DNA from: Candidatus Aquitaenariimonas noxiae
GTDB lineage: Bacteria; Omnitrophota; Gorgyraeia; Aquitaenariimonadales; Aquitaenariimonadaceae
Assembly (NCBI GenBank): GCA_002780005.1
Contig: PEWV01000032.1
Span: 8,123-72,122, forward strand
Direction of reading: 5' to 3'
DNA length: 64,000 nt
The position numbers were made by a program, and so were the translations under genes. The notes below the pieces were generated by a model. The model did no database searches and was not told where the DNA came from. It saw only the letters and a list, made by a program, of their open reading frames with translations. Positions within the stretch are counted from its first letter, which is position 1. Every line of letters starts with the position of its first letter. Shown piece after piece: positions 26,471 through 64,000 of the stretch.

Positions 26471-26537
26471 ATCTATATGCACAAGACAGCTCTTTTAAGA
26501 AACACATTGAGATATAGAAATATCAAGGGATATTAAA

Positions 26538-28302: not shown

Positions 28303-28308
28303 TAGCCG

Positions 28309-33431: not shown

Positions 33432-34763
33432 ATGAAAGAAAATCCTAAGATTGTCATTATCGGCTCTGGTCCCTGTGGAATAGGTGCGGGATGGCACCTT
33501 TTTAAAAATGGATATAATAATTGGGTAATCTATGAGAAAAATGCCTATCCGGGGGGGTTATCAGCAAGTTTTAAAGATGCAAAGGGTTTTACCTGGGATA
33601 TAGGAGGGCATGTTTTATTCTCTCATTATAAAGAGTTTAGTGGATTTTTAGAAGAGGTCTTAGAAAAAAAATATTTAGTACATAATAGAAACTCCTGGGT
33701 TAGGGCGATTGAGAGCTGGATTCCATATCCATTTCAAAATAATATCCATTATTTACCTCAAAAAGAGTTTGAAGAATGTTTTAAAGGTCTTGAAGAACGT
33801 TCCTGTGGGATTTGCAAAGTAAGTAATTTTCAGGAATGGATAGAAACTAACTTTGGTAAAGGGATTTCAAAATATTTTATGATATCGATGAATCAAAAAA
33901 TGTGGTCTTATCCTTTAGACAAGATGTCCACGCAATGGATAGATGAAAGGATAAGCCCTGTAAGCTTAGAAGCAATAAGGCAGAATATGAAGGGCAATAA
34001 AATAGACAGTAGCTGGGGACCAAATAGTACTTTTATCTACCCTTTTTTTGGTGGTATAGGCGAGGTCTTCAGAAGAGCGGTAGTTAAATTCAGGGATAAG
34101 GTGAGGCTAGAAAACCAAGTTTATAAAATAGATTTAGACTCTAAAAAAATATTTTTTAAGAATGGAATGGAAGATAAATTTGATATTTTAGTAAACACCT
34201 CGAACCTTATAGATTTCATTAATATTCTCTACCCACAAAATCCCAGCATTGTCAAAGCTTCAAAAAGACTAAAATACAATAGGCTCTTTATCGTAGGCAT
34301 TGGTCTTAGGAGAGAAAGAAAAGACCCAAGAACCTGGATATATTTTCCTGAAGAAAAATATATTTTCTATAGGGTAACTAACCTCTCAAATTACTCACCT
34401 TATAATGTTCCCAATGGTCATATGCAGAGTTATTCTTCTTTGCTTACAGAGATTACCTTGTCCGAAAATGCACCGGCGAATAGAAAATTCTTTATAGAAG
34501 AAACTGTAAAGGGCTTGATAGATACAGGTATGCTCTCAAAAGCTGATGAAAGTTTAATAGAAAGTATTTTTTCCTTAGAGGTAGAAAATGCTTATCCTAT
34601 ACCCACAGTAGACAGGGATGAGGTTCTATATAAAATTAATGAATTCCTTGAGTCTCAAAACATCTATTCCCGAGGTAGATTTGGTTCCTTCAAGTATGAG
34701 AGGGGGAATATGGATGACTGTTTTATGCAAGGATTTGAGATTGCCCACAGAATGGTGATTTGA
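33432..34763 (+). CDS. FAD/NAD(P)-binding oxidoreductase (amine-oxidase / UDP-galactopyranose-mutase-like fold), paralogue 2
   Basis: Dinucleotide-binding motif (VIIGSGPCGIGAGW...EKNAYPGGL). It is paralogous to the ORF at 21923-23236. Confidence 0.6.
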   Translation: MKENPKIVIIGSGPCGIGAGWHLFKNGYNNWVIYEKNAYPGGLSASFKDAKGFTWDIGGHVLFSHYKEFSGFLEEVLEKKYLVHNRNSWVRAIESWIPYPFQNNIHYLPQKEFEECFKGLEERSCGICKVSNFQEWIETNFGKGISKYFMISMNQKMWSYPLDKMSTQWIDERISPVSLEAIRQNMKGNKIDSSWGPNSTFIYPFFGGIGEVFRRAVVKFRDKVRLENQVYKIDLDSKKIFFKNGMEDKFDILVNTSNLIDFINILYPQNPSIVKASKRLKYNRLFIVGIGLRRERKDPRTWIYFPEEKYIFYRVTNLSNYSPYNVPNGHMQSYSSLLTEITLSENAPANRKFFIEETVKGLIDTGMLSKADESLIESIFSLEVENAYPIPTVDRDEVLYKINEFLESQNIYSRGRFGSFKYERGNMDDCFMQGFEIAHRMVI

Positions 34764-35776
34764 AAATGAAGTTTTCTATAATAATTCCTGTGCACAACGA
34801 GCAAGATAAGCTGAAACCCTGCCTGGACGCTATATTTTCTTCCGAAACCAAAGATTTCGAAGTTATTGTCGTAGATGATAAAAGTACCGATAAATCTGTT
34901 GAAATTGCTGAAATGTATCCCTGCAAATTAATAACCCTGGGGGAAAATAAAAGGGCAGCTTATGCAAGGAATATAGGAAGAGCTAATTCTGAGGGCGACA
35001 TTTTTGTATTTATAGACGCCGATGTAATAATAAAAAAAGATACTTTAGATGTCATATGGCAGAGTTTCAAAGAAAATAATGACATAGCTGCTGTCACCGG
35101 TATTCTTTCTAAAGACTGCCCTTATAAAAATTTTTTCAGTCAATATAAAAATCTCTATATGAATTATGTCTTTAGAAAATGCCCGAAATATATCGATTTT
35201 CTCTATGGCTCAATTATTGCTATAAAGAAAGAACATTATTTGCCGTTTAATGAGGGGTTTAAAATTACCGACGATACAGAGCTAGGGCAAAGATATAAAG
35301 AATTAAATAAAAAAATACTCTTAAACCCTAGCCTAGAGGTAATACATAGTAAAAGGTATAATTTTAAGACAATTATAAAAAACGATTTTTTTGTTCCGTT
35401 CTGGTGGTCAAAGTCTTTCATATTGCACAGGGGTTATTGGGATATTTTTCGAAAGAAAAGATTTGCCCATGCCCGAGTAAGCCAGATAATAAGCGTTTTG
35501 GTGTCATGTTTTTTGCTCATCTCTTTATTTTTTCAATGGAATCCAATAGCACGGCACATCTTTCTTAGCCTTCTATTTTTATTCATACTTCTGAGTTATA
35601 ATTTTTTTCTTTTTCTATATAAAGAGAAAGGTTTTCTATTCTTGCTAAAATCTATTATATTTACATATCTAGATATGTTGGTAATGGGCTTAGGAATATT
35701 AACAGGGTTTATCGATTGTTTGGTTAAAGGTTTCTGTAAGAGAAGTAAGAGATTGTTTAAAACTTCAATACAGTGA
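34760..35776 (+). CDS. Family 2 glycosyltransferase with C-terminal transmembrane helices
   Basis: GT-A motifs (IIIPVHNEQ...VVDDKSTD...FIDADV) followed by a hydrophobic C-terminal third. Confidence 0.75.
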   Translation: MKMKFSIIIPVHNEQDKLKPCLDAIFSSETKDFEVIVVDDKSTDKSVEIAEMYPCKLITLGENKRAAYARNIGRANSEGDIFVFIDADVIIKKDTLDVIWQSFKENNDIAAVTGILSKDCPYKNFFSQYKNLYMNYVFRKCPKYIDFLYGSIIAIKKEHYLPFNEGFKITDDTELGQRYKELNKKILLNPSLEVIHSKRYNFKTIIKNDFFVPFWWSKSFILHRGYWDIFRKKRFAHARVSQIISVLVSCFLLISLFFQWNPIARHIFLSLLFLFILLSYNFFLFLYKEKGFLFLLKSIIFTYLDMLVMGLGILTGFIDCLVKGFCKRSKRLFKTSIQ

Positions 35777-35826
35777 CCGAGTAATCAATTGCAATTATTC
35801 TTAAAAAATATAATTATGTTAAGATA

Positions 35827-36969
35827 ATGCCTAAACTAAAAATTCTTTTTATAACCGAATACTACCCTTACGAAGAAAACATCAGAGGTCTGTTTATTAA
35901 GGAACATGCTAAAGCGGCAAGTCTCTACAATGAGGTGATAGTAATTAATGGTTTAGAGGTTGAAAAACCAACAAAAAAATTATATAAAATCAATGACACA
36001 ATAAATGGAGGCATTAGAGAAATACATATATGCTACTATGCACCAAGGCCCTTCCCAAAAATTTTCTATCCTGTCTATTTATGGGCTTTACTCAAAATTG
36101 TCAAAAAATTGTTGAATGAAGGCTTTATGTTTGATGTTATTCATGCACATGAATATTTTTCTGCTTTTCCGGCTATATTATTGAGCAGATATTTTCGGAT
36201 ACCGCTAGTAATCACCGAACATTTCAGTTACTTTCCATTAGGAGCGATGAAAGGCTTGAAACTTTTGAAAGCACGATTGGTAATGAATCGGGCAAATGTA
36301 ATATTGCCGGTAAGCTATGCGCTGCAGAAAGCTATTGAGGGTTGTGGTATTCGCGGTAATTTTGAGATAATTCCCAATACTGTAGATACTCGTCTGTTCT
36401 ATACGAGTAGAAAAAAAGATGAAGATAAACAGATGAAAAAAATATTGTTTGTAGGTTTGCTCAAACCTACAAAAGGCATTTTTTGTCTCATTGAGGCTTT
36501 AGCGAAAGTTAACGAGATGCGGCATGATTTTAAACTGGATATAGTTGGAGATGGACCATGTCGAGCAATACATGAAAGACAAGCAAAAGATTTAGGGCTT
36601 GAAGACAAAGTTATTTTTCATGGGTTAAAAACTAAAAAAGAGGTTAGTCAATTTATGATGGAAGCAGATTTTTTTGTTTTACCTAGCGAATGGGAAAATC
36701 TGCCGTGCGTCTTGATTGAAGCAATGGCATCAGGTTTGCCTGTTATTGCGACCAAAGTAGGCGGTATTCCTGAAATGGTAACCGAGAAGGCCGGAAAATT
36801 AGTGTCGCCTAAGAATTCCAATGCCCTGGCAGAGGCAATAAATTATATGCTGGACCACTATATAGATTATTCATCCGAAGAAATTGCCATGTATGCAGAG
36901 GAAAGATACAGTTATAAAACGGTGGGGAAGGCTTTAGATAGGGTGTATAGAGATTTAAGCAAAGAGTAG
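35827..36969 (+). CDS. Family 4 (GT-B, retaining) glycosyltransferase
   Basis: C-terminal EX7E-type motif (PSEWENLPCVLIEAMASGLPVIATKVGGIPEMV). Confidence 0.8.
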   Translation: MPKLKILFITEYYPYEENIRGLFIKEHAKAASLYNEVIVINGLEVEKPTKKLYKINDTINGGIREIHICYYAPRPFPKIFYPVYLWALLKIVKKLLNEGFMFDVIHAHEYFSAFPAILLSRYFRIPLVITEHFSYFPLGAMKGLKLLKARLVMNRANVILPVSYALQKAIEGCGIRGNFEIIPNTVDTRLFYTSRKKDEDKQMKKILFVGLLKPTKGIFCLIEALAKVNEMRHDFKLDIVGDGPCRAIHERQAKDLGLEDKVIFHGLKTKKEVSQFMMEADFFVLPSEWENLPCVLIEAMASGLPVIATKVGGIPEMVTEKAGKLVSPKNSNALAEAINYMLDHYIDYSSEEIAMYAEERYSYKTVGKALDRVYRDLSKE

Positions 36970-37030: not shown

Positions 37031-38587
37031 ATGATAAAAGTGTGTTTAATCTCTTTATATGAAGATATAAGTTCTAATGGGATACGATACTTATCTTCAT
37101 ATTTAAAATCTAACGGCGTTGCAGTAAATATGATATTTATGCCTGCAGATATTTCTGATTTTTGTTATAAAGGAAAAAATGATACAAAGAAAGAAATAAA
37201 CATATTAAAGAACTTATTAAATCAGCTTTCCCCCGATCTGATAGGAATAGGTGTTATGGCTAATTATTTTAACAGAGCAGTTCGCATAACAACAGAAATA
37301 AAGAAAGATTTTGATATTTCTGTTATTTATGGAGGTATTCATGCAACAATGTGCCCTGAAGAATGTTTGGAATATGCAGATATAGTCTGTGTAGGTGAAG
37401 CTGAAGAAACGATGACAGAGTTGTGCAAGTCTAAAAATAATCCAGATGCATTAAGGGATATTAAAGGGATATATTACAAACTAGGTGATAAAGTAAAAAA
37501 GAACGAAATTAGGCCTTTAGAAGAAGATTTAGATAAATATCCTTTTCCAGATTATTCGTTAACGGGAGACTTCTTGATTTTAAATAATAAGCTAGAGCGT
37601 ATTCAAAAGAATCACATGGAGAGCTTATTACCTTTGCATCCTTTTGGTGTTGTCACATATAGGCTGATGAGCTCTCGAGGATGTCCTTTTTCATGTACAT
37701 ATTGTTGTAATGAGGCACTTCGGCAAATCTATTCTGGAAAAGGGAAATATCTCAGAGAGAGAAGTGTAAAAAATGTTATTAATGAAATGCTGACTGTAAA
37801 AAATAAATTTAATATACAGGCTTTTCGGATTATGGATGATTCTTTTTTACATCATTCTCTTGAGTGGTTTAAAGAATTCAATAAACTGTATAAATCTAGC
37901 GTTAATTCGCCATTTAGTTGCTTATCAAGTCCCGGCAATGTAACTGTTGAAAAAATGAAGCTATTAGTCGATTCCGGCTTAAGACATATTCAAATAGGGT
38001 TGCAGAGTGGAAGCGATAGAATTAACTTCGAGCTCTATAAAAGAAAGATAAGCAGCGAAAAAACGCTCGCGGTGCTCAACATAATTAATTCACTAAATCC
38101 AAAGCCAAAGGTAGACTTAGATATTATTTTCGATAATCCTTTTGAATCTGATTTAGATAAGATTCAGACAATATATTTTCTGTGTAAAATAAACAAAATG
38201 CAAAATGTGCTATTAGCCTGCTATAGTTTAGTTTTTTATCCTAAAACACAAATATATTATAAAGCAATAGAAGAGGGCATTATCCATGAGAAAGATAGGA
38301 AGAAAGCATATACTCAAGATTTCAGAAAGATTAAGAATACTTTTTTAAATAATTTATGTTTAGGTGCTTCACTTTACAAGTTTTCACCTAAATCGGTTAA
38401 TTTCTTTTTAAAATATAAAGTCTTATATTTCCCTTTTCTGATAGCACAAAAAGCTATTTCTTTCATAAAAAAATTACTTAGTTTTTCACGTAATGTACGA
38501 AGAAGAAAAAGCAAAAAACTCCCACTATTATCCTCAACATTAATAACAAAAACAATATTCCTTGACTCAAAGTTAGAAAAGACATAG
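37031..38587 (+). CDS. Cobalamin (B12)-binding-domain radical SAM protein
   Basis: N-terminal B12-binding Rossmann-like domain (IGIGVMANYF...VIYGGIHATMCPEE) followed by the radical SAM CxxxCxxC motif (SSRGCPFSCTYCCNE). Confidence 0.8.
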   Translation: MIKVCLISLYEDISSNGIRYLSSYLKSNGVAVNMIFMPADISDFCYKGKNDTKKEINILKNLLNQLSPDLIGIGVMANYFNRAVRITTEIKKDFDISVIYGGIHATMCPEECLEYADIVCVGEAEETMTELCKSKNNPDALRDIKGIYYKLGDKVKKNEIRPLEEDLDKYPFPDYSLTGDFLILNNKLERIQKNHMESLLPLHPFGVVTYRLMSSRGCPFSCTYCCNEALRQIYSGKGKYLRERSVKNVINEMLTVKNKFNIQAFRIMDDSFLHHSLEWFKEFNKLYKSSVNSPFSCLSSPGNVTVEKMKLLVDSGLRHIQIGLQSGSDRINFELYKRKISSEKTLAVLNIINSLNPKPKVDLDIIFDNPFESDLDKIQTIYFLCKINKMQNVLLACYSLVFYPKTQIYYKAIEEGIIHEKDRKKAYTQDFRKIKNTFLNNLCLGASLYKFSPKSVNFFLKYKVLYFPFLIAQKAISFIKKLLSFSRNVRRRKSKKLPLLSSTLITKTIFLDSKLEKT

Positions 38588-38690
38588 CGATAGTTGTGAT
38601 ATCGATATTATTGTCTTATCTAACGATGAGGAGATTCCTTGACGCCGAAAAGGAGCTATCGAAAAATATTGAAAAGCTAACTTTATGTAG

Positions 38691-39758
38691 TTATAAATTT
38701 ATTTTTGAAAAAATCTTTGAAATAATAGGAACACGGACCTCTCGATAAAATCCTAACCTGTTGCATTCTCTACAACTAGGCAAAGAGCCCCTTTTTATCT
38801 CTTTTCTTAGCTTTACGCGTCTTTCAGAAAACCAAATCTCCGGCCCATCAACTAGGCAGTTCCCATATTCATAGTAATATAAAAATTCGCATGGAAAAAA
38901 GTTTCCCCAAGGGTCTATAAGAATGGTTGTTTTAGTCCTGTTGCAGTCGCGATATAGCAGAGGACATAATTTATTTAATAGATACCTGAGGCACTGTTCA
39001 ATTTTTATAAAGAGTACATTTCGATTTGTTTTTTCTTTGTAAGTTCTCAAAAGATAATAATATCTTGACCAAATTTCCTCTTTTTCTTTAAGCGTAAGCA
39101 GCAAGCAATCCGGGTCTATGGCTCTATGGCATCCTATTCTTTTGCCTTCGAAGTAAGTATCTTTTAAACTTTTATTAAAATCGACCAAAAAAAGTAATTT
39201 AAAATCAGCGTTTTTTTCTTTTGCAAACAGATACATTTCTTTTAAATGAATATAATTTTTTTTAGACATTACAGGCCATATTGATACCACGGGATGTTGC
39301 TTGTTTTGTTTTTTCTTCTCTTTCTGGAGAGCATCTATTCCTTTTGATGCTTCTAAAAAAGCCCCTTTTCCTCTCATTAAATCATGATATTTTTCCGGGC
39401 CGTCTATTGAAAACCTTATGCGGTGAAGTTCGCCTTTAACTAATTCTTTTGCCACGGACTCATTTATTAAAGTTCCATTGGTAACAATTTCCGTGAACGC
39501 TGAAGGAGAAATTTCCCTGATTATTTCTGGCAGGTCTTCTCTTAGCAGGGGTTCACCGCCCAAAAATCTGACACAATTGACACCAAAATGAGATTTATAA
39601 GTTTTGAAAGTATCAATAATCTCCTTGGTGGTTAATTCCGGCTTGTCGCTACGTTCATCGAGCTTCCATACATTGCACATTCTGCACCTAAGATTGCACT
39701 TGTATGTGATATCAAACGTTAAAGTTGTAGGGTAGCCCCGGCTTTTATTTTTTATCAT
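38691..39758 (-). CDS. Radical SAM protein with a SPASM/twitch-type C-terminal Cys-rich domain
   Basis: CNLRCRMC radical SAM motif, GGEPLL glycine-rich SAM motif, and a C-terminal CxxC...CRECN cluster. It is paralogous to the truncated minus-strand ORF at 63339-64000 (shared SIDG.E..HD.MR...GAF block). Confidence 0.75.
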   Translation of the reverse strand: MIKNKSRGYPTTLTFDITYKCNLRCRMCNVWKLDERSDKPELTTKEIIDTFKTYKSHFGVNCVRFLGGEPLLREDLPEIIREISPSAFTEIVTNGTLINESVAKELVKGELHRIRFSIDGPEKYHDLMRGKGAFLEASKGIDALQKEKKKQNKQHPVVSIWPVMSKKNYIHLKEMYLFAKEKNADFKLLFLVDFNKSLKDTYFEGKRIGCHRAIDPDCLLLTLKEKEEIWSRYYYLLRTYKEKTNRNVLFIKIEQCLRYLLNKLCPLLYRDCNRTKTTILIDPWGNFFPCEFLYYYEYGNCLVDGPEIWFSERRVKLRKEIKRGSLPSCRECNRLGFYREVRVPIISKIFSKINL

Positions 39759-39801
39759 ATTATTATCCTAACCTTATTTTAAGCCTCTAAGCCCGAGTAT
39801 C

Positions 39802-39908
39802 AATATAGCACAGAGATAGTTGTAATTTCAATAAATTATTGATATGTTACAGCTGGCGATAAAGATGGAAAATATTACATTGAAACCGTGTCTATTTTGT
39901 GATATATT
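39802..39908. promoter_or_regulatory. Divergent near-consensus sigma70 promoter pair between the two radical SAM genes
   Basis: Plus strand: TTGAAA (39880-39885), 17 bp spacer, TATATT (39903-39908). Minus strand: TTGAAA (rc, 39826-39831), 18 bp spacer, TATATT (rc, 39802-39807). Confidence 0.5.
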
Positions 39909-39941
39909 AATTGCGAAAAAGGGGTATCCTAGTTTAACAAG

Positions 39942-41208
39942 ATGGCAGATGTAATTTTATTCCAACCAAAAACGTCTAAAGGATCGGCGAAAGAACTACT
40001 TTCCAGAGCCCCCGTAGGGTTATTATTTGTAGCAGCCCCCTTGGTTAAAAATAATTATAAGGTTAAAATCATAGATCAGGAAACAGATATCTATTGGCTT
40101 GATGAATTGAATAAGGAGCTAAATGATTCGACAATTTGTGTAGGAGTTTCTTCAAGGACCGGCAGGCAGATTTCAGAAGGATTAAAATTTTCCAAAATCG
40201 TCAAAGATAGATATAATATACCGATTGTTTGGGGGGGGCGTACACCCAAGCATGTTGCCAGAACAAACAATCATGAACAGTTTAATTGATATTGTAGTTA
40301 GAGGCGAAGGAGAAGAATCATTTTTAAAAATTGTCACAGCGTTAAAGTGTGGTAATAGCCTTAATGATATACCGAATATCTGGTGGAAAGATAATGATAA
40401 AGTTTATTCAACACCAACAGATGGACTTATCAATCTAGACAACCTGCCCCCATTACCCTACCAATTGTTGGACTTTGAAAAATATATTGAAATACCGCAA
40501 ACCAATCTTCCAAATTGTAAACGTATTATTGAGGTATATACAGAGAGGGGATGCTGCCATAGATGCGGGTTTTGCTATAATATTAATATGCATCAATGTA
40601 AATGGCGAGCGCTTGCAGCTTCTAAGGTCGTGGAGCAAATAGAATGCCTTGTTAAAAATTTTGTATTGGATGGGATTAATTTTAATGCTGATAATTTTTT
40701 TGTAGACAAAAAGAGAGTAGCTGATATTTGCGCAGGGATTATAAAAAGAAAAATTAAAATTTCTTGGCAAGCTGGCTGCAGAATAGATTATTTTGCCAGA
40801 TATGATAATTCATTTATCGATTTATTAATAAAAAGTGGTTGTCGTAAGTTAAATTTTGGACTTGAGAGCGGTTCGCAAAGAATATTAAATTTGATACAAA
40901 AAGACATGAATTTAGACGACGTTTTTAAGGTTAACGCAAAATTGAAGAAATGGCAAATAAGAGTTGATTATGATATTATGGCCGGTTTCCCGGAGGAAAC
41001 CAAAGAAGAGGTGTTGCAGACTTATAAGATTATGTTTAGGTTACATCATGAATATCCAAAGGCAACGTTTTTTGGACCGTATATATATACACCCTATCCC
41101 GGGACACCCTTATACGACAAGTGTCTGGAAATGGGATTTAATCCTCCGGAGAGACTTGAAGATTGGGAAATTTTGAATGGTGTGGGAAAACATATTTATC
41201 ATTCATAA
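39942..41208 (+). pseudogene. B12-binding radical SAM protein split into two ORFs (39942-40289 and 40225-41208) by a frameshift in a G8 homopolymer (40231-40238); a G7 tract restores a continuous protein (...NIPIVWGGVHPSMLPEQ...)
   Basis: The N-terminal ORF is a B12-binding domain and the downstream ORF carries the radical SAM motif (ERGCCHRCGFC). Removing one G fuses them at the conserved GGVHP motif. This is either phase variation or a homopolymer sequencing error. Confidence 0.7.
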
Positions 41209-41500: not shown

Positions 41501-42760
41501 TTGGTTTATAATAAAATTATCAAAGGTAACATCGGTAAAATCCTGCCATATTACATTTTACGCCAAAAAACGATAGAAAAAATGAATAAAAAGGTTTGTA
41601 TCATTTACCTCTCTTATTTAAAGTGGGATATTCGTATTAGAAAACAGATTGTAACCTTAAAAAAGGAAGGTTATGACATTGCCAAGGTTGGAATTATAGA
41701 TTCAGTTTCAGTTATTGAGGGAGTTGACAGTTTGCCGTTATCTTTCAGTTGGTCACGTATGCTTTCTTTGCTGGAAATGGTTTGTAAAGGTTTACAACTT
41801 GTGGTAGGAAGGATTTTTGAATGCGTATATGAAAGAATCTATCGGAATAAATATTTTGAGCAAATATTTCAAGTCTTAAGTGATAAAAAATTTGACCTAT
41901 ATATAGCAAACGATTTGAACTCCTTGCCCCCAGCGATCGAACTTAAAAAGAAGAATGGCGGAAAGGTGTTATTCGATGCCCACGAATACAGCCCTCTACA
42001 GTTTGCGAATAGGTGGTATTGGAATTTTTTAATATTTCCTTATAGGGATTATTTATGCAAAAAGTATCTTCCTCAAGCTGACTATATGATAACTGTGTGT
42101 GATTCATTGGCTGATAAATACCATAAGGAATACGGAGTCAAATCAGAAGTTATAAGAAATATTCCTTTTTATTGCCGTGTTGATTTTAAGAAGACAAATC
42201 CGTCTGGAATAAGAATGGTTCATCATGGGGTAACCTCAAGTGCTCGGAGGCTTGAGAATATGATATACCTGATGAGGTTTTTAGATTCTAAATTCACGCT
42301 TGATTTTATGTTGTTAAATGTTGATAAAAGCTATATTAAAAAATTAAAAGGATTAGCAAAAAATGTCGCGCCTGATAGAATAAGATTTAAAGACACCGTA
42401 CCGCCCCATGATATAATAAAAACATTGAAAAACTATGATATAGGTATATATCTCTTGGGGGCTTATAACTTTAATCTTAAATACGCGCTACCCAATAAGT
42501 TTTTTGAGTTTATGATGGCAGGCCTATGCGTTGTTGCAGGTACTTCACCCGAAATGGGGAAGATTATTAACCAGTATAACTTTGGTATATTTGTTGATAA
42601 AATTGACTATAGAGAAACGGCAAAAGTGATTAATCAATTAAGTAAAGAAGAGATAGACCAGATGAAAATGAATTCGCTTTCTGCTGCTAAAGAATTGAAT
42701 GGAGAGTTAGAAATGAAGAAATTTAGTGAAATTGTCACTAATTTGTTAGAAAAAAAGTAA
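41501..42760 (+). CDS. Putative glycosyltransferase (GT-B-like, family 4-related); the start is likely the internal ATG at 41582 (MNKKVCIIY)
   Basis: An N-terminal region typical of GT-B N-domains (KVCIIYLSY...), a C-terminal nucleotide-sugar-binding-like region (FEFMMAGLCVVAGTSPEMGKII), and a glycan-island context. Confidence 0.5.
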   Translation: MVYNKIIKGNIGKILPYYILRQKTIEKMNKKVCIIYLSYLKWDIRIRKQIVTLKKEGYDIAKVGIIDSVSVIEGVDSLPLSFSWSRMLSLLEMVCKGLQLVVGRIFECVYERIYRNKYFEQIFQVLSDKKFDLYIANDLNSLPPAIELKKKNGGKVLFDAHEYSPLQFANRWYWNFLIFPYRDYLCKKYLPQADYMITVCDSLADKYHKEYGVKSEVIRNIPFYCRVDFKKTNPSGIRMVHHGVTSSARRLENMIYLMRFLDSKFTLDFMLLNVDKSYIKKLKGLAKNVAPDRIRFKDTVPPHDIIKTLKNYDIGIYLLGAYNFNLKYALPNKFFEFMMAGLCVVAGTSPEMGKIINQYNFGIFVDKIDYRETAKVINQLSKEEIDQMKMNSLSAAKELNGELEMKKFSEIVTNLLEKK

Positions 42761-42792: not shown

Positions 42793-43680
42793 ATGAGAAT
42801 ATCAATATTAATTATAACTCATAACAGGGGCGATGATTTAAAGATATGTTTAGATTCGTTAGTAAAACAGTCAAGAAAGGCAGATGAAGTAGTCATAATA
42901 GATAATGGCTCGACAGGCGGAACAAAATCCGTTATTGATTTTTTTAAGGATAAACTGCCTATAAAATATTTTTATGAATCCACTAGCTCTATACCTAAAT
43001 CGAGAAATATGTCTTTAAGAGAAGCTAGCGGTGATATATTAGCTATCCTTGATGATGATTGCATAGTAGAGAATGATTGGACGGAAAATATTGAGTTCTA
43101 TCATAGAAAGTATCAAGCTGTCGCCATAATCCAGGGAAGGGTAATCCCTCTAGAGGCTTCTAGTTTGGTAGGGAAGACGTATATAGCGGCTGCAGAAGCC
43201 TATATAGAAAGGAATTTTTTTGCTGGGAAAAGCCAGGATTCAGAGGTTGAGTTGCCAAGAATAATCAATGGTTTCATTTCTCTAAAAAAAGAGGAGGTGA
43301 ACAGATTAGGCATTTATTTTAAAGAGGAATTTCCATTTTTTTCCGATAAAGAATTCGGCATAAGATTGCAAAAGATAGGCACTAAAGTTCTCTATGCGCC
43401 TAGCATACTAATATACCATAAGTATAAATTTAAGTCGTTTTTTGCTCTTTTTGTACGATATTTCCGTATGGGCAGGATAGATTCAAAGCTAAAAAAAATA
43501 TATGGAAGTTTTGAAATTAACCCAGGCTTGAGTCAATTATATCAGACGGCAGCGGTTATCATGGCTGATAAACGCGTTCGTTATATGGCAAAAATAATAA
43601 TGGTGTCAGCATATGTTTTAAGGTCGATCTCCTATGCTATTGGGTATTGTTACCAAAATTTAAGACACTGGTTCAAATAA
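42793..43680 (+). CDS. Family 2 glycosyltransferase
   Basis: GT-A motifs (ISILIITHNRGDDLKICLDSL...VVIIDNGSTGGT...ILDDDC). Confidence 0.75.
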   Translation: MRISILIITHNRGDDLKICLDSLVKQSRKADEVVIIDNGSTGGTKSVIDFFKDKLPIKYFYESTSSIPKSRNMSLREASGDILAILDDDCIVENDWTENIEFYHRKYQAVAIIQGRVIPLEASSLVGKTYIAAAEAYIERNFFAGKSQDSEVELPRIINGFISLKKEEVNRLGIYFKEEFPFFSDKEFGIRLQKIGTKVLYAPSILIYHKYKFKSFFALFVRYFRMGRIDSKLKKIYGSFEINPGLSQLYQTAAVIMADKRVRYMAKIIMVSAYVLRSISYAIGYCYQNLRHWFK

Positions 43681-57435: not shown

Positions 57436-58863
57436 TTATATTTTAGTTTTTATGCTAATTTCACTTGCAAGGAACTTTTCTACATATAGCAAATGAACCG
57501 TATGCAGGCATAAAAGATATAGAGGGGGAAATATCGCACCTAATATCCTTATTTCCCATCCGGCACCAAAAACAATAAATAATGGAATTATAAAAATTAA
57601 AGTTAAAATCAACAAATATCTTATTGGAAGCGGTTTCTTGGTCCATTTATAGAAAATTAAAAAAGAGATAAGTATAAGTAAAAAAATATTTCCGCCTTGT
57701 GGAAATATATCTATACCTAAACAATAAGGGTCACAAAACATAAAATATGAGTGTGGTGATAAAAAAAATGCAATGTGCTCTTTTGCCTGCCATATTACAT
57801 GAGTACCGCTAGCCCTTGCGTATAAGACTGCCAAAAATGATAATATTCCACAGACAATAGATGCATGAGCTATTATATGTTTTAGAAATTTTTTATTTGG
57901 CATGGTCCTATATTTTAACGCTATAAAATACAAAAGAAGTAACGCTCCGGTCTCTTTGTTTAAAATACTCATAGAGAACGATAAATAATATAACAACCAT
58001 TGTTGTTTAATTAAAAAAATCAAACACACTATAAAAAATAGCAATTCTGGAAAATCGTAAATATAACCACCGTATAGAAATGTCCATGGCAAAATAAGTA
58101 AAGCAAAAACCGGAGAATAGTCTAAAACTGCCGGGTGAACACTGTATACACATTTAGTCAGATGCCGGGTTAATAGCATAAGTAGCAGCAAGCAGATATA
58201 TAAAAAAATGAAAACCAAGTGATACTTTAATGTGAGCACCAAATGATATTTTAACATTAAACTAGTATTAAAAGTCTCACAATAAGATATATTTCTCATA
58301 ATAGGCGAGTTTTGCATCAAAAAGTTACTAATTGAAACCGAGATATGTCTGGGTACTATTGCTACTATAAGATTAATAAGCATTGGCGATAACATTCTTG
58401 AGACAGAAGGTTTATATGCAGTACCATCTAACATCTGAAACAAACATGCTAATAAGCAATTGTTAAACCTTAAAAGAAACCACTTTACCGTAAAAGATGT
58501 TAATACTATCAAAGCGGCTAATAAATATATGAAGAACAGCAACGTTTTTCGACAGAATTTTCTCGTTTTATTTTCGTTTGGTTTAAAAAGAATCCTTAGG
58601 CAAAACAATAAGCAAAATAGAATAATATTATTAAACTGAAAGAAAGCAATATGTGCTTTAGCAAGGTAATAGTCGAAAGGTAGCGCATTGTCTTTTATCA
58701 AAGCCGATTTTAAGAAACTATCAGACTGCGTGTTATATAATTTAGCCAAAGATATGTCAAAGAATGACAGATAAAATAGCCATATAGCTATTAAACAAAC
58801 AAAGAGCCCTATTGAGAAAAGAGGGAGTATATTATGTGATTTATATTTGTTTTTGGATGTCAT
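57436..58863 (-). CDS. Polytopic integral membrane protein (at least 10 predicted TM helices); candidate GT-C-type glycosyltransferase / polymerase-like protein
   Basis: Very hydrophobic 475-aa protein with no recognisable soluble domain. It contains a short internal duplication (LMLKYHLVLTLKYHLVF) and lies next to the radical-SAM module. Confidence 0.35.
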   Translation of the reverse strand: MTSKNKYKSHNILPLFSIGLFVCLIAIWLFYLSFFDISLAKLYNTQSDSFLKSALIKDNALPFDYYLAKAHIAFFQFNNIILFCLLFCLRILFKPNENKTRKFCRKTLLFFIYLLAALIVLTSFTVKWFLLRFNNCLLACLFQMLDGTAYKPSVSRMLSPMLINLIVAIVPRHISVSISNFLMQNSPIMRNISYCETFNTSLMLKYHLVLTLKYHLVFIFLYICLLLLMLLTRHLTKCVYSVHPAVLDYSPVFALLILPWTFLYGGYIYDFPELLFFIVCLIFLIKQQWLLYYLSFSMSILNKETGALLLLYFIALKYRTMPNKKFLKHIIAHASIVCGILSFLAVLYARASGTHVIWQAKEHIAFFLSPHSYFMFCDPYCLGIDIFPQGGNIFLLILISFLIFYKWTKKPLPIRYLLILTLIFIIPLFIVFGAGWEIRILGAIFPPLYLLCLHTVHLLYVEKFLASEISIKTKI

Positions 58864-58866
58864 TTT

Positions 58867-61299
58867 TTAAGAAGACTCTTTTTTAATTATTAGTCGAATT
58901 AAAGTGCCCTTGTCATGTAACACAACCCTGTTGAACAATTTTAACAGGCAATAACGCACGGATCCTTTTTTAAAAAAAGGCCTATAAAAAAAAGTGGAAT
59001 ATTCCTGAACTTGTAGAATTTTATATTTGCAGAAATAATCACTGATAATATCTTTCGCAATAAAACCTTTATTTTTATCGATTAATATTTTGCTATTTTC
59101 AGCGGGAGAGTGGAAGTCGACCATTTTTATAATTTCTGTTTTAGAAAGGTCTCTTTTTACGAGATGGATTTTTTTTAAGTGTTCATTGATGTGTGCTTGG
59201 TGATAATCGGTTATTTTTTTTCCGCCACCAAACATTTTAAACAATTCTGCAAACAGCCGCAAATATGCGAAGGTAAAGAATTTTTTGTTCTGTTCATGTG
59301 ATATAATAATCAAACCATTTTTGTTTAAAATTCTATCTATTTCTTTTAAGCAACTTCCGTAATCAGGGAGATGATGCAATACTGCATTCAATGTAATAAC
59401 ATCAAACGTTGAATCAGAGAATGGCAATTTTTCCGCATCTCCCTGAACGAAAAAGATAAATTGTGTGCAAACGCTATCCTTAAATCTTTTTTTTGACTCC
59501 AGAAGCATATTGTAGCTGAGGTCATAGCAGACGAGGGTATCGATTGTTTCTAGATAATTTTGTATAGTGTTGCCAACAAATCCAGTACCGCTGCCAAGGT
59601 CTAAAATAGATAACTTGAATCCATCTCTACCTCGAGCCTCATTTAGGCGCTTAGACGCTATATTCTTCCACCATAGTATATCTCCTTCTAACACTTCGGG
59701 ATGGTTAGAATCGTATGTTTCTGCTTCGCTTTCATGATAGATATGATTTATTTCCTTGATTAATTTAACATTATATTCTATAGGGTCAGTTTGATTAAAA
59801 AATCTTTTAATTCTTCGTGATATTTCCCACAGGTAGCTTCGAAAAACATAAAGAGCCCATTGGTCTTTGCGAATAATAGATACTAACAAGTCGGCGGCGA
59901 TAATGACAGGTATTTGGGGAAGGTATTTAAAATATATATATAGTTTTTTCCTAAGAATAAATTTTGTGATATTCGAAGGTAATATAGGAAGAGCCCTAAA
60001 TAGTATTTGGAAATTAAGCAGATTGCATTTTTTCTTATCGGCGACAACGGAACCTGTAGAAAGATAGTTTTTCTGAAGACCTTGATTTATATTTTCAGTT
60101 ACATATTTTTCATTTATAATACAATTACGCAATGCGTACTTGGTTATATCAACTTCAGGGAAATATTCAAGCCAAAAAATACTTGCTCTTATCATATGTT
60201 TTCTTTCAGATAGGAATTCAATTGCCTGCAAAACATCTTCGTCTTTTTCACCGGGAAGCCCTACCATAACATCTACGGAATAGTTTAATCCAGCATCATC
60301 TAATGCATTAAGAGCGTGATATATTTCTTCATTTGTTTCTTGTCTGTTTAGCACTTTTCTGCGTATGCAGGGATTAAGCGATTCTATACCTATTTGAACA
60401 TGCCAACATCCAGCTTCTTTTAAGGCAGCAGCTATGCCAGGCGTGATAGTTTTTGGGTGACCCATAATTCTCAAAGGCACACCTATTCCTTTTTTATATC
60501 TTTCAAGAAATTCTAATGTCCAACTTCCGGAAGCCGCAAGGATGTTGTTCTTTATGTCTACACGTTTATAATTATAGCGTTCTTTCATAATTTTTAGTTC
60601 AGAAATTACACTTTCTACGGATCTCTCACGATAAAAAGGACTTAAATTATTTTCTTTTTCCCAATGCGCATAAAAATTCTGAGAACAATAAGAACAAGTA
60701 GCAATGCATCCCTTGTTCGTAACAGTAAGATAATAATCAGATATAGGTATGTATTTTTTAAATAATTCCTTATCTAGCAGGGGAAGTGTATCAAGATTTT
60801 GCATTAGAGATCGTGGGTTATTTTTTATAATTTCACCATCTTTTTTAAACCATAAATTTTTTATAGAATAATCCACACATCTGTTTTTCAAGCTCTCCAG
60901 AAGTTCAAGAAGCGGATACTCTCCTTCTCCCAGGCAAATAATATCTACACAATCTTCTGCTATGCATGTATCTGGTACTGATGTCGGATGTACTCCTCCC
61001 ATAATCACAGGCACATTTATTGTTTTCTTAACAGTTCTAGCTATGTCTAAACACCATTGATAGTTATCGGCAAATACTGAGAAAGCCAGAAGGTCTGGCT
61101 GATAATGGATGATATCCCTTATGACCTGTTTTTTATCACTCAATATTTTTGACAGAAACGGAATAGAAAAATATTGCTTATCATCAAAGAGGCCCCTGTC
61201 GAAAGCAAGGGTACATTCATGTCCATGCTGTTTCAATATAGCAGACAACGCTTCAATAGAAATTATTTCGGATCCGACAGCTGCAAACATTACTTTCAT
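58867..61299 (-). CDS. Fusion protein: B12-binding radical SAM enzyme (N-terminal ~450 aa) + class I SAM-dependent methyltransferase (C-terminal ~250 aa)
   Basis: B12-binding domain (VPVIMGGVHPTSVPD), radical SAM motif (CIATCSYCSQNFY), then methyltransferase motif I (ILDLGSGTGFVGN) and motif II/III (FDVITLNAVLHHLPD). Confidence 0.8.
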   Translation of the reverse strand: MKVMFAAVGSEIISIEALSAILKQHGHECTLAFDRGLFDDKQYFSIPFLSKILSDKKQVIRDIIHYQPDLLAFSVFADNYQWCLDIARTVKKTINVPVIMGGVHPTSVPDTCIAEDCVDIICLGEGEYPLLELLESLKNRCVDYSIKNLWFKKDGEIIKNNPRSLMQNLDTLPLLDKELFKKYIPISDYYLTVTNKGCIATCSYCSQNFYAHWEKENNLSPFYRERSVESVISELKIMKERYNYKRVDIKNNILAASGSWTLEFLERYKKGIGVPLRIMGHPKTITPGIAAALKEAGCWHVQIGIESLNPCIRRKVLNRQETNEEIYHALNALDDAGLNYSVDVMVGLPGEKDEDVLQAIEFLSERKHMIRASIFWLEYFPEVDITKYALRNCIINEKYVTENINQGLQKNYLSTGSVVADKKKCNLLNFQILFRALPILPSNITKFILRKKLYIYFKYLPQIPVIIAADLLVSIIRKDQWALYVFRSYLWEISRRIKRFFNQTDPIEYNVKLIKEINHIYHESEAETYDSNHPEVLEGDILWWKNIASKRLNEARGRDGFKLSILDLGSGTGFVGNTIQNYLETIDTLVCYDLSYNMLLESKKRFKDSVCTQFIFFVQGDAEKLPFSDSTFDVITLNAVLHHLPDYGSCLKEIDRILNKNGLIIISHEQNKKFFTFAYLRLFAELFKMFGGGKKITDYHQAHINEHLKKIHLVKRDLSKTEIIKMVDFHSPAENSKILIDKNKGFIAKDIISDYFCKYKILQVQEYSTFFYRPFFKKGSVRYCLLKLFNRVVLHDKGTLIRLIIKKESS

Positions 61300-61726
61300 A
61301 AGATTACCCCATGTTATAGCATATAATTTTTATGTTTTGATTTTTTTACACTTAAAAGATCTGACAGCATAGTAACTAAATTTCAAAAAAAGAAATAGGT
61401 TACCAGCATAATTAGAAACTCGCCTTTGAACTAATATATAATTCAGATTTGAAAAGAATCTAAATAAAAAATTATCTGGGATGGATGTAATGAGTCTAAA
61501 AAAAGGTTTCATAACTATGTATATTTTTCATGGTAATAGAGATATCCATCCAGGCAGACGTTGTAATACTACAATGCGTTGTGTATCTTTTCCAGATAGA
61601 AAAGAACGAGCCGGAAAATAATTCATGATATTGCTTTGTACTTTTTGCATATCGTAGTATCTTGCTATTTCCGTATGAGGATAAGGTTGTAGTATCGTTG
61701 GGGTCATAAAAGCGCCCATTTTTGTA

Positions 61727-61867
61727 TTAGCCAATCAATTTGTTATATTTTTCAAATGATAAACTCACTACATCAGTATCATGGCCAGCGTTTTTTAAGA
61801 CGGCAGACATTGCTTGAAAACCATTTAACTCAAATGATGAAAGCTGAACAAATAATATTTTTGCCAT
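61727..61867 (-). pseudogene. Remnant of a B12-binding radical SAM N-terminus (MAKILFVQLSSFELNGFQAMSAVLKNAGHDTDVVSLSF...), 47 codons then a stop; the remaining ~430 bp to the upstream gene is non-coding
   Basis: Clear similarity to the N-terminus of the 58867-61299 protein (MKVMFAAVGSEIISIEALSAILKQHGHECTLAF). The otherwise gene-dense region 61300-61894 has only short, unrelated ORFs. Confidence 0.5.
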
Positions 61868-61894
61868 AAGCACTGTTTTAATTAATCCCTTGTC

Positions 61895-63328
61895 TTACTT
61901 CGAGCCTTGAATATTTATGAATGAATAGAAAGCCATAAGTAATTTTTTTACATCTTCTATTGAATTAATTGAAAGTAATTGTCTAATAATCATTCCAGGG
62001 TTGAGATATAGTCTTCTGTAAGCCTCTTTTTGTTTTTTTAGCAGTATTTCTTTATCAAGTCCAAAGGGAACAAATATGGGAGTAGAGGAGGAAATTAACA
62101 GTTTGTCAAAATGAGAGCGAGAAAACACCCCATATGTTTCTGCTTTATTCCAGAGTTCTGTTCCTGGATATGGTGTCATAAGGCTAAAGACAGGATAATG
62201 CGATTTTAATGAAAGAGCAAAGTTTATTGTTTTTTCTATTGTTTCCAACGTTTCCCCGGGGTTTCCAAGTATGAAGAATGTTTTTAACATTAATCCAGAT
62301 TGCAAAGCTAGTTTGCATGTTTTTGTAACTTGATTTAGGGATACATTTTTTTTTATTAAACGAAGAATTCTTTCATCACCGGATTCAACACCAATAGCCA
62401 CAAGCCAACATCCAGATTTTTTCATCTCCTTAAAAATACCTTTATCTTTGATATTAGCATGCATATTAGCATACCAGCTTATAGCAATTCTTTTTCTTTT
62501 CAGCAATCGACATATGTCATATATACGATTTTCGTTTATAGAAAAAGTATCATCGCAAAAAAATACTTCTTTTACGCCAAACTGTTTGGTTAAAAATTCT
62601 ACGTAATCAACTACATATTCTGCACTATGCAAACTAACAGATTTGCCAAAAGGGGTATTACAAAAAATGCACTGATGGGGGCAGCCCCTTGAAGTAATAA
62701 TTGGCATAAAAGGCAATTTTTTGTAGTGAAGAAGATATGGTTTGTATTTAGAAATAGGTGGCAATAAATGAATAGCTGGAAATGGTAACGTGTCCAAATC
62801 GCTTATTCTGCCCCTTGGTTTGTTTACAATTATTCGATTATCAGAGGTTTTGAATACCAGGCCGTCTACATTAGAGAGATTTTTGGAGTTACTTTCAATA
62901 CTGTTTGCTAATTCCAATAGGGTTTTTTCGCCTTCTCCGATAACGCAATAGTCAAAAGGTATTTGTTCTAATGAACTTTCCGCCAGAAAAGTAATATGAG
63001 GACCTCCTGCAACAATTGATTGAACAACATTAGCTTTTTTAATTTCTTCAACTAATTTCGCAACTACATGACAAGAAGGCGTGTTGACATATATGCCTAC
63101 TAGCTGAGCAGATTGGTTTTTTAAATATCGAACAATATCAACAGTGGAAAGATGTAAGACATTTGCATCAAGGATTTTCACTTCATAACCATTTTTTATC
63201 AGGTAACTAGCAAGAGAACATAAACCGATCGGAGGTTGTAATGAGGCAAGAAGGCTGTATTTCCCATAGATATCTTTGATATCAGCGGGTGGATTAATTA
63301 ATATAATTTTAAGCCTGGCCTGTTTCAT
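61895..63328 (-). CDS. Cobalamin (B12)-binding-domain radical SAM protein
   Basis: B12-binding domain (IVAGGPHITFLAE) and radical SAM motif (TSRGCPHQCIFCNTPF). Confidence 0.8.
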   Translation of the reverse strand: MKQARLKIILINPPADIKDIYGKYSLLASLQPPIGLCSLASYLIKNGYEVKILDANVLHLSTVDIVRYLKNQSAQLVGIYVNTPSCHVVAKLVEEIKKANVVQSIVAGGPHITFLAESSLEQIPFDYCVIGEGEKTLLELANSIESNSKNLSNVDGLVFKTSDNRIIVNKPRGRISDLDTLPFPAIHLLPPISKYKPYLLHYKKLPFMPIITSRGCPHQCIFCNTPFGKSVSLHSAEYVVDYVEFLTKQFGVKEVFFCDDTFSINENRIYDICRLLKRKRIAISWYANMHANIKDKGIFKEMKKSGCWLVAIGVESGDERILRLIKKNVSLNQVTKTCKLALQSGLMLKTFFILGNPGETLETIEKTINFALSLKSHYPVFSLMTPYPGTELWNKAETYGVFSRSHFDKLLISSSTPIFVPFGLDKEILLKKQKEAYRRLYLNPGMIIRQLLSINSIEDVKKLLMAFYSFINIQGSK

Positions 63329-63338
63329 ATACCTATAT

Positions 63339-64000
63339 TTAGAACAATGCTACATAATCTTTAAGGATAGAAAGCACTCCCTTATATTTCAACAGCGCAC
63401 TGACAAAACCCATGCATCGTATGGTGCAGTTTTTACAAAATTGATGTTTACCCTGCAAAATTCCGAACTTCATAACATTTTTTTTATCATAATAAATACT
63501 TCTAATATCACCCTTACTTAGCTGTAGAGGTAAGCCGTTACATGGAAAACTTATGCTTCCGTCCTGCTTGAGAGAAATAGCGATGTCCATCGCTCTGCAG
63601 CCATAGGAATCCAAGCCCCCATGTTGTATAATACTAAAAAATGGTTGAACGTTTGTAATTAGATTTTTATACTTCACCCTAAGAGATTTTATAGTATTAG
63701 CGTATTCTGAAAGAAAACTCGTATTAGAATCGAACATATTTTTTCCGGTCTCATTCATGGGTGTATATATACTTTTACTTAAAATCCCTATCGAAATTTT
63801 TACTCCTAATTTCTTAGCAATATCGCATAAGTCCTCCAACATTTCATAAGAAGTCGTAGGAGTATAAATTGTGGTAATCTGAGTTTTGCAATTTTTAGAA
63901 TTTAAAAATCGAAGTGTTTCAAGAGCTTTATTAAACGCGCCGGGAGCTTGTCGCATGGAATCGTGAAAATCTTCCGTGCCATCAATGCTTACATGTATCA
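63339..64000 (-). CDS. Radical SAM / SPASM-domain protein, N-terminus off the window (reading frame open to 64000)
   Basis: The sequence continues without a stop upstream of the Met at 63956 (...IHVSIDGTEDFHDSMRQAPGAF...). It has a C-terminal Cys cluster (CKNCTIRC) and is paralogous to the 38691-39758 product. Confidence 0.65.
   Translation of the reverse strand, partial: IHVSIDGTEDFHDSMRQAPGAFNKALETLRFLNSKNCKTQITTIYTPTTSYEMLEDLCDIAKKLGVKISIGILSKSIYTPMNETGKNMFDSNTSFLSEYANTIKSLRVKYKNLITNVQPFFSIIQHGGLDSYGCRAMDIAISLKQDGSISFPCNGLPLQLSKGDIRSIYYDKKNVMKFGILQGKHQFCKNCTIRCMGFVSALLKYKGVLSILKDYVALF

Follow-up and report, generated by a model that had tools for sequence, protein, structure and literature searches.

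Radical S-adenosylmethionine (rSAM) and cobalamin enzymes are known to modify sugars during antibiotic synthesis, and lipids in the hopanoid and tetraether pathways. For the assembly of bacterial envelope glycans, no demonstration of such enzymes was found in the searched literature. Here, a stretch of 64,000 nucleotides (the window) was analysed from the Omnitrophota metagenome-assembled genome (MAG) CG07_land_8_20_14_0_80_42_15, alias 'Candidatus Aquitaenariimonas noxiae'. Its final part (57436-64000, minus strand) carries a flagged module of rSAM enzymes, two of them with a cobalamin-binding domain (B12-rSAMs), and a first-pass annotation had paired this module with a second one at 37031-41208. 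Based on sequence comparison, the flagged genes appear to belong to a widely conserved, uncharacterised glycan-tailoring cassette, for which our searches found no curated family, solved structure or paper.

Comparison with described systems

The first system to resemble the cassette is the assembly of the lipopolysaccharide (LPS) inner core, which uses glycosyltransferases (GTs) of family GT9 (WaaC/WaaF), the phosphoethanolamine transferases EptB/EptC and GT-C enzymes such as ArnT and RgtA-D. The cassette likewise combines a GT9, a membrane-anchored enzyme of the alkaline phosphatase (AP) superfamily with a Thr nucleophile and a GT-C in one operon. Unlike in EptB/EptC-type systems, its AP domain is of the PF01663 type, seems to face the cytoplasm and is fused to a methyltransferase (MT) in 9 loci, and unlike WaaC/WaaF its GT9 scores below the heptosyltransferase cut-offs. 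To our knowledge and in the searched literature, rSAM or B12-rSAM enzymes are part of no described LPS pathway.

Next, aminoglycoside and nucleoside antibiotic pathways use the same enzyme classes on the carbon atoms of sugars, as illustrated by the cobalamin C-methyltransferases GenK/GenD1, the twitch dehydrogenase BtrN, the diol dehydratase AprD4 and OxsB. AprD4 and OxsB are also among the nearest solved structures to the central B12-rSAM of the cassette (B12d). In contrast to the envelope-glycan context and membrane-bound partners of the cassette, these enzymes modify soluble small molecules in secondary-metabolite clusters, and the similarity holds at the superfamily level only. In a 2026 review of B12-rSAM enzymes (PMC12931638), carbohydrates feature solely in connection with antibiotics.

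Two lipid pathways are also comparable. In the hopanoid side-chain pathway (HpnH, HpnI, HpnJ, HpnK), considered here together with calditol synthase, a glycosyltransferase links a sugar to a membrane lipid, and HpnJ, a B12-binding-domain rSAM, remodels this sugar. The cassette differs in its partners (GT9, AP and MT), in a best HpnJ score far under the cut-off and in lacking shc and hpn genes at every locus. The tetraether-lipid clusters (Tes/Mss) combine a small SPASM/twitch rSAM (Hbs) with B12-rSAMs (Hgm, GrsA/B) in anaerobes including Omnitrophota, whereas the cassette lacks tes and mss, scores under the family cut-offs and has GT fusions and neighbours that indicate sugars.

The flagged genes are half of an operon

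Domains were called from the open reading frame (ORF) listing and Pfam scans, and curated families by NCBIfam cut-offs. The exact protein of the second B12-rSAM (B12c) occurs on 14 groundwater-metagenome contigs, which extend past the end of the window. These reveal the order rimP-nusA-infB, a transposase, GT9 (398 aa), rSAM361, AP475, rSAM349, B12c, B12d::MT, a membrane protein and finally proS-ispG-rseP-dxr-cdsA. The flagged genes are thus the distal half of a transposase-flanked operon of about 11 kb between rimP-nusA-infB and proS, with a GC content of 30-36% compared to 41-45% in the flanks. The operon has three layers: a core of five functions (GT9, rSAM361, AP475, MT and B12d), an accessory pair (rSAM349 and B12c) and a lineage-specific GT-C. 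An Rfam scan at the gathering cut-offs matched nothing in the window or in the extended locus L001, so neither a cobalamin nor a SAM riboswitch was found there. The scan for promoters and terminators gave no signal above chance, and no tRNA genes were found in the window.

B12d is encoded as a fusion, B12d::MT (58867-61299, minus strand, 810 aa). Its first 505 residues (59785-61299) match B12-binding (53 bits) and Radical_SAM (69 bits), and the three cysteines of the CxxxCxxC radical SAM core (C198, C202 and C205) are invariant. The predicted structure of B12d (pLDDT 90) has the architecture of solved cobalamin rSAMs. The nearest solved structures are TsrM, MgmA, CysS, OxsB, TokK and AprD4, with TM values of about 0.6-0.67; the first five are the top matches (E 1e-20 to 2e-16, TMq 0.60-0.67), and the model also resembles AprD4. 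No close solved homologue was found for the cassette proteins, and B12d reaches no NCBIfam cut-off. Residues 506-810 (58867-59784) form the C-terminal class I methyltransferase seen in the first-pass annotation (Methyltransf_11 74 bits, Ubie_methyltran 67 bits), and its SAM motif D62-G64-G66-G68 is kept across orthologues.

The GT9 (L001 5241-6437) matches PF01075 with 95.5 bits (cut-off 22), and its structural-database matches are the LPS heptosyltransferase II structures 3TOV and WaaF 1PSW, without a match to TibC. All 12 cassette GT9 orthologues carry a C-terminal C-x2-C...C...C motif (C359, C362, C373 and C378; residues 359-378) outside the region aligning to solved LPS heptosyltransferases, which may be a metal-binding finger. 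The small rSAM of the core, rSAM361, matches SPASM (PF13186) with 23.7 bits, above the cut-off of 21.5.

AP475 has an N-terminal membrane domain, with many conserved polar residues, followed by a Phosphodiest/Sulfatase-type alkaline-phosphatase domain (PF01663 type). The catalytic-type residues D223 (a metal ligand), T260 (LTNPAF), D405 and H406 are conserved. A role for rSAM361 as formylglycine maturase of AP475 was rejected because AP475 carries the Thr nucleophile motif L-T260-N-P-A-F of the nucleotide pyrophosphatase/phosphodiesterase (NPP) type; it aligns as an NPP-type enzyme and lacks the C/S-x-P-x-R formylglycine motif. In AP::MT fusions, the hydrophobic segments end at about residue 205. 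Because no such segment follows, the AP domain would lie on the cytoplasmic, SAM-containing side, and in AP475 it would face the cytoplasm as well.

The accessory pair lies upstream of B12d::MT. The window holds the C-terminal 220 residues of rSAM349 (63339-64000, minus strand), as the gene crosses the window end; the full-length gene (L001 8941-9990) matches Radical_SAM (90 bits) and Fer4_12. Orthologues were found in 7 of the 25 cassette loci described below, and the C-terminal cysteines C264, C283, C318, C321 and C325 are conserved in 6 orthologues. B12c (61895-63328, minus strand, 477 aa; B12-binding 76 bits, Radical_SAM 96 bits) belongs to an HpnJ/BchE-like clade. Its best curated match is HpnJ (TIGR03471) with 229.6 bits, below the cut-off of 577.6, and it also has the best score for BchE (TIGR02026), 162 bits against a cut-off of 481. 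The 'cyclase' names on JGI homologues are automatic labels. Orthologues with 49-54% identity occur in three loci (L011, L014 and L031) and adjoin rSAM349 orthologues in L014 and L031.

B12c and B12d::MT are separated by 595 bp of non-coding DNA (61300-61894). A minus-strand ORF of 46 codons in this gap (61727-61867) may be a remnant of the N-terminus of a further B12d-like gene. Its best phmmer matches in a local database of 245 sequences are N-termini of the B12d family, with weak E-values of about 0.003-0.03, which is what stands of the decayed fifth copy in the first-pass annotation. Against this, blastx of the gap against all locus proteins found nothing, a C-terminal 'fragment' gave no phmmer match, and the rest of the gap had no detectable similarity.

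The last gene of the operon (57436-58863, minus strand) encodes the polytopic membrane protein of 475 aa that the first-pass annotation had placed beside the module. It has about 11 hydrophobic segments, and its predicted structure is that of a GT-C glycosyltransferase fold. A hidden Markov model (HMM) from the alignment of this GT-C family (A2) matched only the gene of the window among the cassette loci, which points to a lineage-specific accessory gene.

A cassette conserved across phyla

A scan of one genome per species, together with contig look-ups, yielded 25 non-redundant cassette loci. Of these, 17 span more than 12 kb, and co-occurrence was counted for both sets. The rSAM domain of B12d defines a highly conserved protein family (length about 505 aa), with 45-70% identity in Omnitrophota, Nitrospinota, Planctomycetota, Magnetococcales and Binatia, and a profile of it retrieves 5,667 cluster representatives at E<=1e-30. 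B12d occurs together with an MT in 21/25 loci (16/17 of the longer ones), with the AP enzyme in 20/25 (17/17), with GT9 in 16/25 (15/17) and with rSAM361 in 15/25 (14/17). Based on these counts, the conserved unit is GT9, rSAM361, the AP enzyme, the MT and the B12-rSAM, most of which lies past the window end, and not the triad of two B12-rSAMs and a SPASM rSAM proposed in the first-pass annotation. Of the two linkages that it proposed to survey in related genomes, the one to glycosyltransferases is seen in the GT9 counts, while the one to pse genes is not conserved for the flagged module. The pair of rSAM349 and B12c recurs in part of the loci. Besides Omnitrophota, Nitrospinota, Planctomycetota and Magnetococcales, the cassette taxa include Thalassospiraceae and a cultured host, Desulfobacter vibrioformis DSM 8776.

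Several gene fusions connect the components of the cassette with one another and with sugar chemistry. In 9 loci the MT forms one protein with the AP enzyme, in 7 it is a separate gene, and the B12d::MT fusion occurs here and in five further proteins (P0002, P0003, P0282, P0324 and P0372). In four others (P0082, P0303, P0386 and P0396), B12d is fused to a SPASM rSAM; the genome scan gave locus L020 of D. vibrioformis as the context of P0082. Members of the B12d clade are also fused to GT4 glycosyltransferases (P0367 and P0421), with 34-36% identity to B12d and 31-32% to B12a of the second module.

In two loci (L030 6158-9035 and L032 6148-9001), rSAM361 is swapped for an NAD-dependent epimerase, a Gfo/Idh/MocA oxidoreductase and a protein of about 300 aa without known family. 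The replacement of rSAM361 by the epimerase and Gfo/Idh/MocA enzymes suggests a role for it in sugar redox or epimerisation chemistry. The swap parallels that between BtrN and NAD-dependent dehydrogenases. The replacement could be an oxygen-tolerant substitute for the radical step.

Longer clusters add SPASM rSAMs, a short-chain dehydrogenase/reductase (SDR), a PurH-like AICARFT protein and PMT_2-type GT-C proteins. The PurH-like AICARFT_IMPCHas protein (about 500-525 aa; L022 7744-9294, L031 16921-18402, also L021, L023, L024 and L026) is an unusual part for a glycan locus. The clusters that bear it also hold the extra SPASM rSAMs, the SDR and two small proteins without known family.

In three hosts that are not related (L001 3791-5086, L008 2603-3707 and L020 37-1577), the immediate neighbours of the cassette include transposase or integrase genes, of the Transposase_mut type in one and HTH_Tnp_1 plus rve in the other two. 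These flanks, the low GC content and a patchy distribution over phyla, with 45-70% identity, suggest horizontal transfer of the cassette.

Proposed function and alternatives

With little more than even confidence, we read the cassette as encoding a pathway that modifies a lipid-anchored glycan, most probably the LPS inner core, on the cytoplasmic side of the membrane. An undescribed rSAM system acting on a glycan had already been proposed in the first-pass annotation. This part of the reading is supported by the GT9 in 16 of the 25 loci, the GT4 fusions, the GT-C fold and the Wzx, Wzy, GT2 and GT4 genes surrounding relatives of the island copy (B12a of the second module), one of these loci also carrying a PMT_2::rSAM-SPASM fusion. 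As for the substrate, the LPS inner core is probable: this target is favoured because GT9 is in the core, kdsA- and LpxO-type genes adjoin the cluster in two loci and the hosts are diderm. In L031, the neighbours are a kdsA-type DAHP_synth_1 gene and a CBS gene, and in L032 an LpxO-type hydroxylase. Genes for Lnt, a BamD-like lipoprotein and a lipid A acyltransferase are present in the window itself, which makes its host an LPS-producing diderm.

The core enzymes would work on the cytoplasmic side of the inner membrane, and their lipid-anchored target would most probably be the part of the LPS core that contains Kdo and heptose. First, GT9 would add a heptose-type sugar, and the small rSAM would oxidise, epimerise or dehydrate a sugar carbon. 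B12d would then alkylate, and most likely methylate, an unactivated carbon, the AP enzyme may add or edit a phosphoryl substituent via its Thr nucleophile, and the class I MT would perform an O- or N-methylation. After flipping, the GT-C could attach a further sugar in the periplasm from a polyprenyl-phosphate donor. More tentatively, the cassette might install an undescribed structure on the lipid A-proximal LPS core in anaerobic diderms of many phyla, e.g., a C-alkylated or carbocyclic sugar with a methylated phosphoryl substituent.

Several points weigh against this reading. All chemical steps are deduced from enzyme class, and B12-binding-domain rSAMs are not all methylases, as illustrated by OxsB and AprD4-like enzymes. 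The best NCBIfam match of the GT9, heptosyltransferase II, scores 95.8 bits against a cut-off of 134.6, and the curated equivalog cut-offs of heptosyltransferases I, II and III are all missed. GT9 is missing from the D. vibrioformis and Thalassospiraceae loci, and LPS-gene neighbours occur in few loci only. Three of the loci (L011, L018 and L022) also belong to MAGs labelled Patescibacteria or Uhrbacteria; as such groups should lack LPS, either misbinning or a target other than LPS would follow. Finally, the C-terminal helices of B12d, predicted to form a hydrophobic or amphipathic bundle, would suit a lipid substrate equally well as a lipid-linked glycan.

The same enzymes might act on another glycoconjugate. 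This could be a polymer assembled on a polyprenyl carrier (capsule, O-antigen, exopolysaccharide or wall glycopolymer) or an activated ulosonic acid, e.g., CMP-Kdo or CMP-pseudaminic acid (CMP-Pse). We consider this rather unlikely, yet plausible. The cassette neighbours are WecG, Bac_transf, Wzy_C and nucleotide-sugar enzymes in L008, and UDP-glucose dehydrogenase, an epimerase, GT1 and GT2 in L007. The D. vibrioformis locus, without GT9, has a CTP_transf_3 cytidylyltransferase, and both the loci with Patescibacteria or Uhrbacteria labels and the position of the second module inside a pse/GT island also fit such a target. However, the GT9 family is known mainly from LPS core assembly, the kdsA- and LpxO-type neighbours point to LPS as well and, in the window, the cassette is separate from the O-antigen-like island.

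A modified membrane lipid, the alternative left standing in the first-pass annotation, is improbable. Here, the rSAMs would methylate, cross-link or cyclise alkyl or isoprenoid chains, as do Tes/Mss, Hbs, Hgm, GrsA/B, HpnP/R and HpnJ, and the GTs would only add a head group. Known lipid-tailoring clusters do pair SPASM/twitch rSAMs with B12-rSAMs, and Omnitrophota carry Hbs and Mss homologues (bioRxiv 10.1101/2023.10.20.563219; PMC11868695). HpnJ as the best curated match of B12c, the predicted C-terminal helix bundle of B12d and the conserved membrane domain of the AP enzyme are likewise in line with a lipid. In contrast, the scores are far under the cut-offs: 230 against 578 for HpnJ, 74-147 against 360 for the ladderane-type family and, for Tes (NF045702, cut-off 450 bits), 63.9 for rSAM361 and 51.1 for SPASM1 of the second module. 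No tes, mss, shc or hpn genes were found in any of the 25 loci, nor hpn or squalene-hopene cyclase genes in the window. Moreover, the clade fusions are to GT4 glycosyltransferases and rSAM361 is replaced by typical nucleotide-sugar enzymes, so a lipid fits less well than a glycan.

Maturation of a peptide or protein, either in a pathway for ribosomally synthesised and post-translationally modified peptides (RiPPs) or by an autotransporter-heptosyltransferase-type GT9 glycosylating a protein that is then modified by the rSAMs, is very improbable. SPASM rSAMs and B12-rSAMs are common RiPP maturases, NCBIfam gives weak matches to ApyD, WgkB and PapB, and the Cys4 motif of the GT9 orthologues might be read in the same way. 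Yet the core genes abut or overlap one another, and genes for a protease, a transporter or leader recognition (RRE) are absent. The RiPP family scores are 5-10 times under the cut-offs, and the GT9 matches LPS heptosyltransferase II and not TibC. A RiPP precursor in the cassette was rejected, in agreement with the first-pass annotation, as no ORFs of 25-90 aa are conserved across the cassette loci. None of the module and cassette proteins reached a curated NCBIfam cut-off, including those of HpnJ, BchE, Tes and the RiPP maturases.

Relation between the two modules

The first-pass annotation took both modules for paralogous copies of one triad. Their domain content was confirmed, with Pfam finding B12-binding and Radical_SAM in all four B12 genes. 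In B12a, B12c and B12d, PF02310 and PF04055 are above the gathering cut-offs, which is the class B rSAM architecture; the two halves of B12b (20.9 and 18.6, cut-off 32.1) fall below because the gene is split. The GG(V/I)H(P/A)T loop reported for all four is exact in two (GGIHAT and GGVHPT), whereas B12c has GGPHIT and the GG-VHPS of B12b is cut by a frameshift. A SPASM rSAM flanked by two B12 enzymes describes the second module, but not the flagged one, in which the minus-strand order is rSAM349, B12c, the possible remnant, B12d::MT and the membrane protein. Both small rSAMs had been assigned to the SPASM type. SPASM1 of the second module matches the domain (26.0 bits, cut-off 21.5), and rSAM349 is a candidate SPASM/twitch-like rSAM, with conserved C-terminal cysteines and no PF13186 match at E<=0.01, as fragment or at full length.

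The four B12 proteins are pairwise 25-29% identical, with B12a closest to B12d and B12b closest to B12c. SPASM1 and full-length rSAM349 share 38% identity over 133 residues of generic rSAM core, and blastp of SPASM1 against the window fragment of rSAM349 gave nothing at 1e-3. In other genomes, SPASM1 matches unrelated small rSAMs about equally and rSAM361-type orthologues slightly better. What the modules share is a toolkit at the level of clades: the B12a/B12d clade, the HpnJ/BchE-like B12b/B12c clade and a small-rSAM clade. Both also lie in low-GC islands (0.30-0.37, flanks 0.41-0.46).

A duplication within this genome is hardly tenable: the shared clades and the nearest pairs named above speak for it, but it is refuted by the identity of in-genome counterparts (25-38%, compared to 45-70% for orthologues in other phyla) and by the orthologue contexts, as gene order and orientation are not alike, the flagged genes fall into two separately conserved sub-modules and the second module lacks the GT9, AP and MT core.

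The second module and the pse/GT island

The module at 37-41 kb combines members of these three clades separately from the flagged one and would serve the pse/GT island (about 22-44 kb), which is also low in GC. B12a (37031-38587, plus strand, 518 aa) has B12-binding and Radical_SAM domains and falls in the broad clade of B12d, with 26% identity. Its family counts more than 1,383 relatives in Omnitrophota, the candidate phyla radiation (CPR), DPANN and Electrothrix, surrounded by GT4, GT2, Wzx, Wzy, Wzz, MT and epimerase genes. SPASM1 (38691-39758, minus strand, 355 aa; Radical_SAM 86 bits) lies between the two B12 genes. B12b (39942-41208, plus strand), with both domains and of the B12c-like clade, carries a +1 frameshift at eight consecutive G (G8 tract, 40231-40238) that breaks it into two ORFs (39942-40289 and 40225-41208); removal of one G restores an intact protein of 421 aa reading IVWGGVHPSM. 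B12a, B12b and B12d score 77-122 bits for HpnJ.

Directly upstream of B12a lie a GT2 and a GT4 gene (34760-36969, plus strand), named after the Pfam annotations of the same genes on L036-L041; 62 bp separate the end of the GT4 gene from the start of B12a. Two further plus-strand glycosyltransferase genes close the island: a GT4-like one (41501-42760; Glycos_transf_1 28 bits, cut-off 26.4) and a putative GT2-like one (42793-43680), called from an N-terminal DDxxxxD-type GT2 pattern read in the sequence.

The pseudaminic-acid (Pse) pathway (23336-31591, plus strand) consists of PseB, PseC, a protein without assignment, a WbuX amidotransferase, a Pse methylase, a cytidylyltransferase, PseG-like and PseH-like proteins and PseI. 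The first-pass annotation had called it complete. PseB (483), PseC (530), PseI (469), WbuX (311) and the Pse_Me-ase (170) are above the NCBIfam cut-offs, while PseG (113) and PseH (70) are below. The WbuX-type N-acetyl-sugar amidotransferase and the 'pseudaminic acid biosynthesis-associated methylase' (26538-28302) suggest an acetamidino and/or methylated Pse derivative, and not plain Pse5Ac7Ac. The pse genes are bracketed by FAD/NAD-binding proteins like amine oxidase or UDP-galactopyranose mutase (21923-23236 and 33432-34763), the former with a PRK07208-type score of 344 bits, below the cut-off. The protein of 570 aa following pseI (31710-33422) has a faint Capsule_synth match and is a candidate Pse transferase. 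Among the loci of B12a relatives, a 300-kb CPR contig from Ca. Buchananbacteria (L034, 1-17497) holds six B12-binding rSAM genes with GT9, GT4, GT2 and a Wzx-type flippase, and encodes a fusion of 854 aa of PMT_2 (GT-C), Radical_SAM and SPASM.

Variation within the population

Both islands are inactivated piecemeal in this population. Besides the window, six more assemblies of the population carry the G8 tract of B12b, and a G9 allele (P0280, 111 aa) is out of frame like G8. No in-frame allele (G7 or G10) was seen in the assemblies, and the exact product of 421 aa is absent from a collection of 15 billion proteins. In 5/7 assemblies, SPASM1 has two deletions of 1 nt (38735 and 39035), leaving 250 aa without the SPASM domain, and in 3/6 assemblies a nonsense substitution at 58314 splits the GT-C gene into 183 and 287 aa. 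Therefore, the 37-41 kb module is probably not fully functional and partly inactivated in this population.

The frameshift of B12b could be phase variation or a fixed pseudogene. In C. fetus, glycan loci contain MoaA/PqqE-type rSAM, SDR, MT and formyltransferase genes bearing poly-G tracts (PMC6321876). As in such phase-variable Campylobacter loci, a poly-G tract interrupts a gene of a glycan island here and the G8 and G9 alleles coexist; unlike for Campylobacter contingency genes, an in-frame allele was not observed. Since the other inactivations are a nonsense mutation and indels outside repeats, decay is as likely as switching. The varying disruptions of B12b, SPASM1 and the GT-C gene across assemblies indicate that the islands behave as fast-evolving surface-glycan loci.

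Significance

The literature search, in which subscription journals were not covered, found no description of the cassette. Its hosts are abundant, mostly uncultured anaerobes and one cultured strain, D. vibrioformis DSM 8776 (L020, in the leading ~21.6 kb of scaffold NZ_JQKJ01000003.1), which carries the B12d::SPASM rSAM fusion and makes the function experimentally approachable. If the proposed role is correct, it would bring new chemistry into the structure of LPS or polysaccharides and assign a function to a family of thousands of members. A modified LPS core would be the first cobalamin/rSAM chemistry in LPS biosynthesis. In that case, the B12a/B12d clade (thousands of members, including GT4 and GT-C fusions) would represent a class of radical enzymes for glycan modification that is general in Omnitrophota, CPR and DPANN and has been overlooked. 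The rSAM-rich 'biosynthetic clusters' of candidate phyla would also have to be reread, as many may be surface-glycan and not RiPP or lipid loci.

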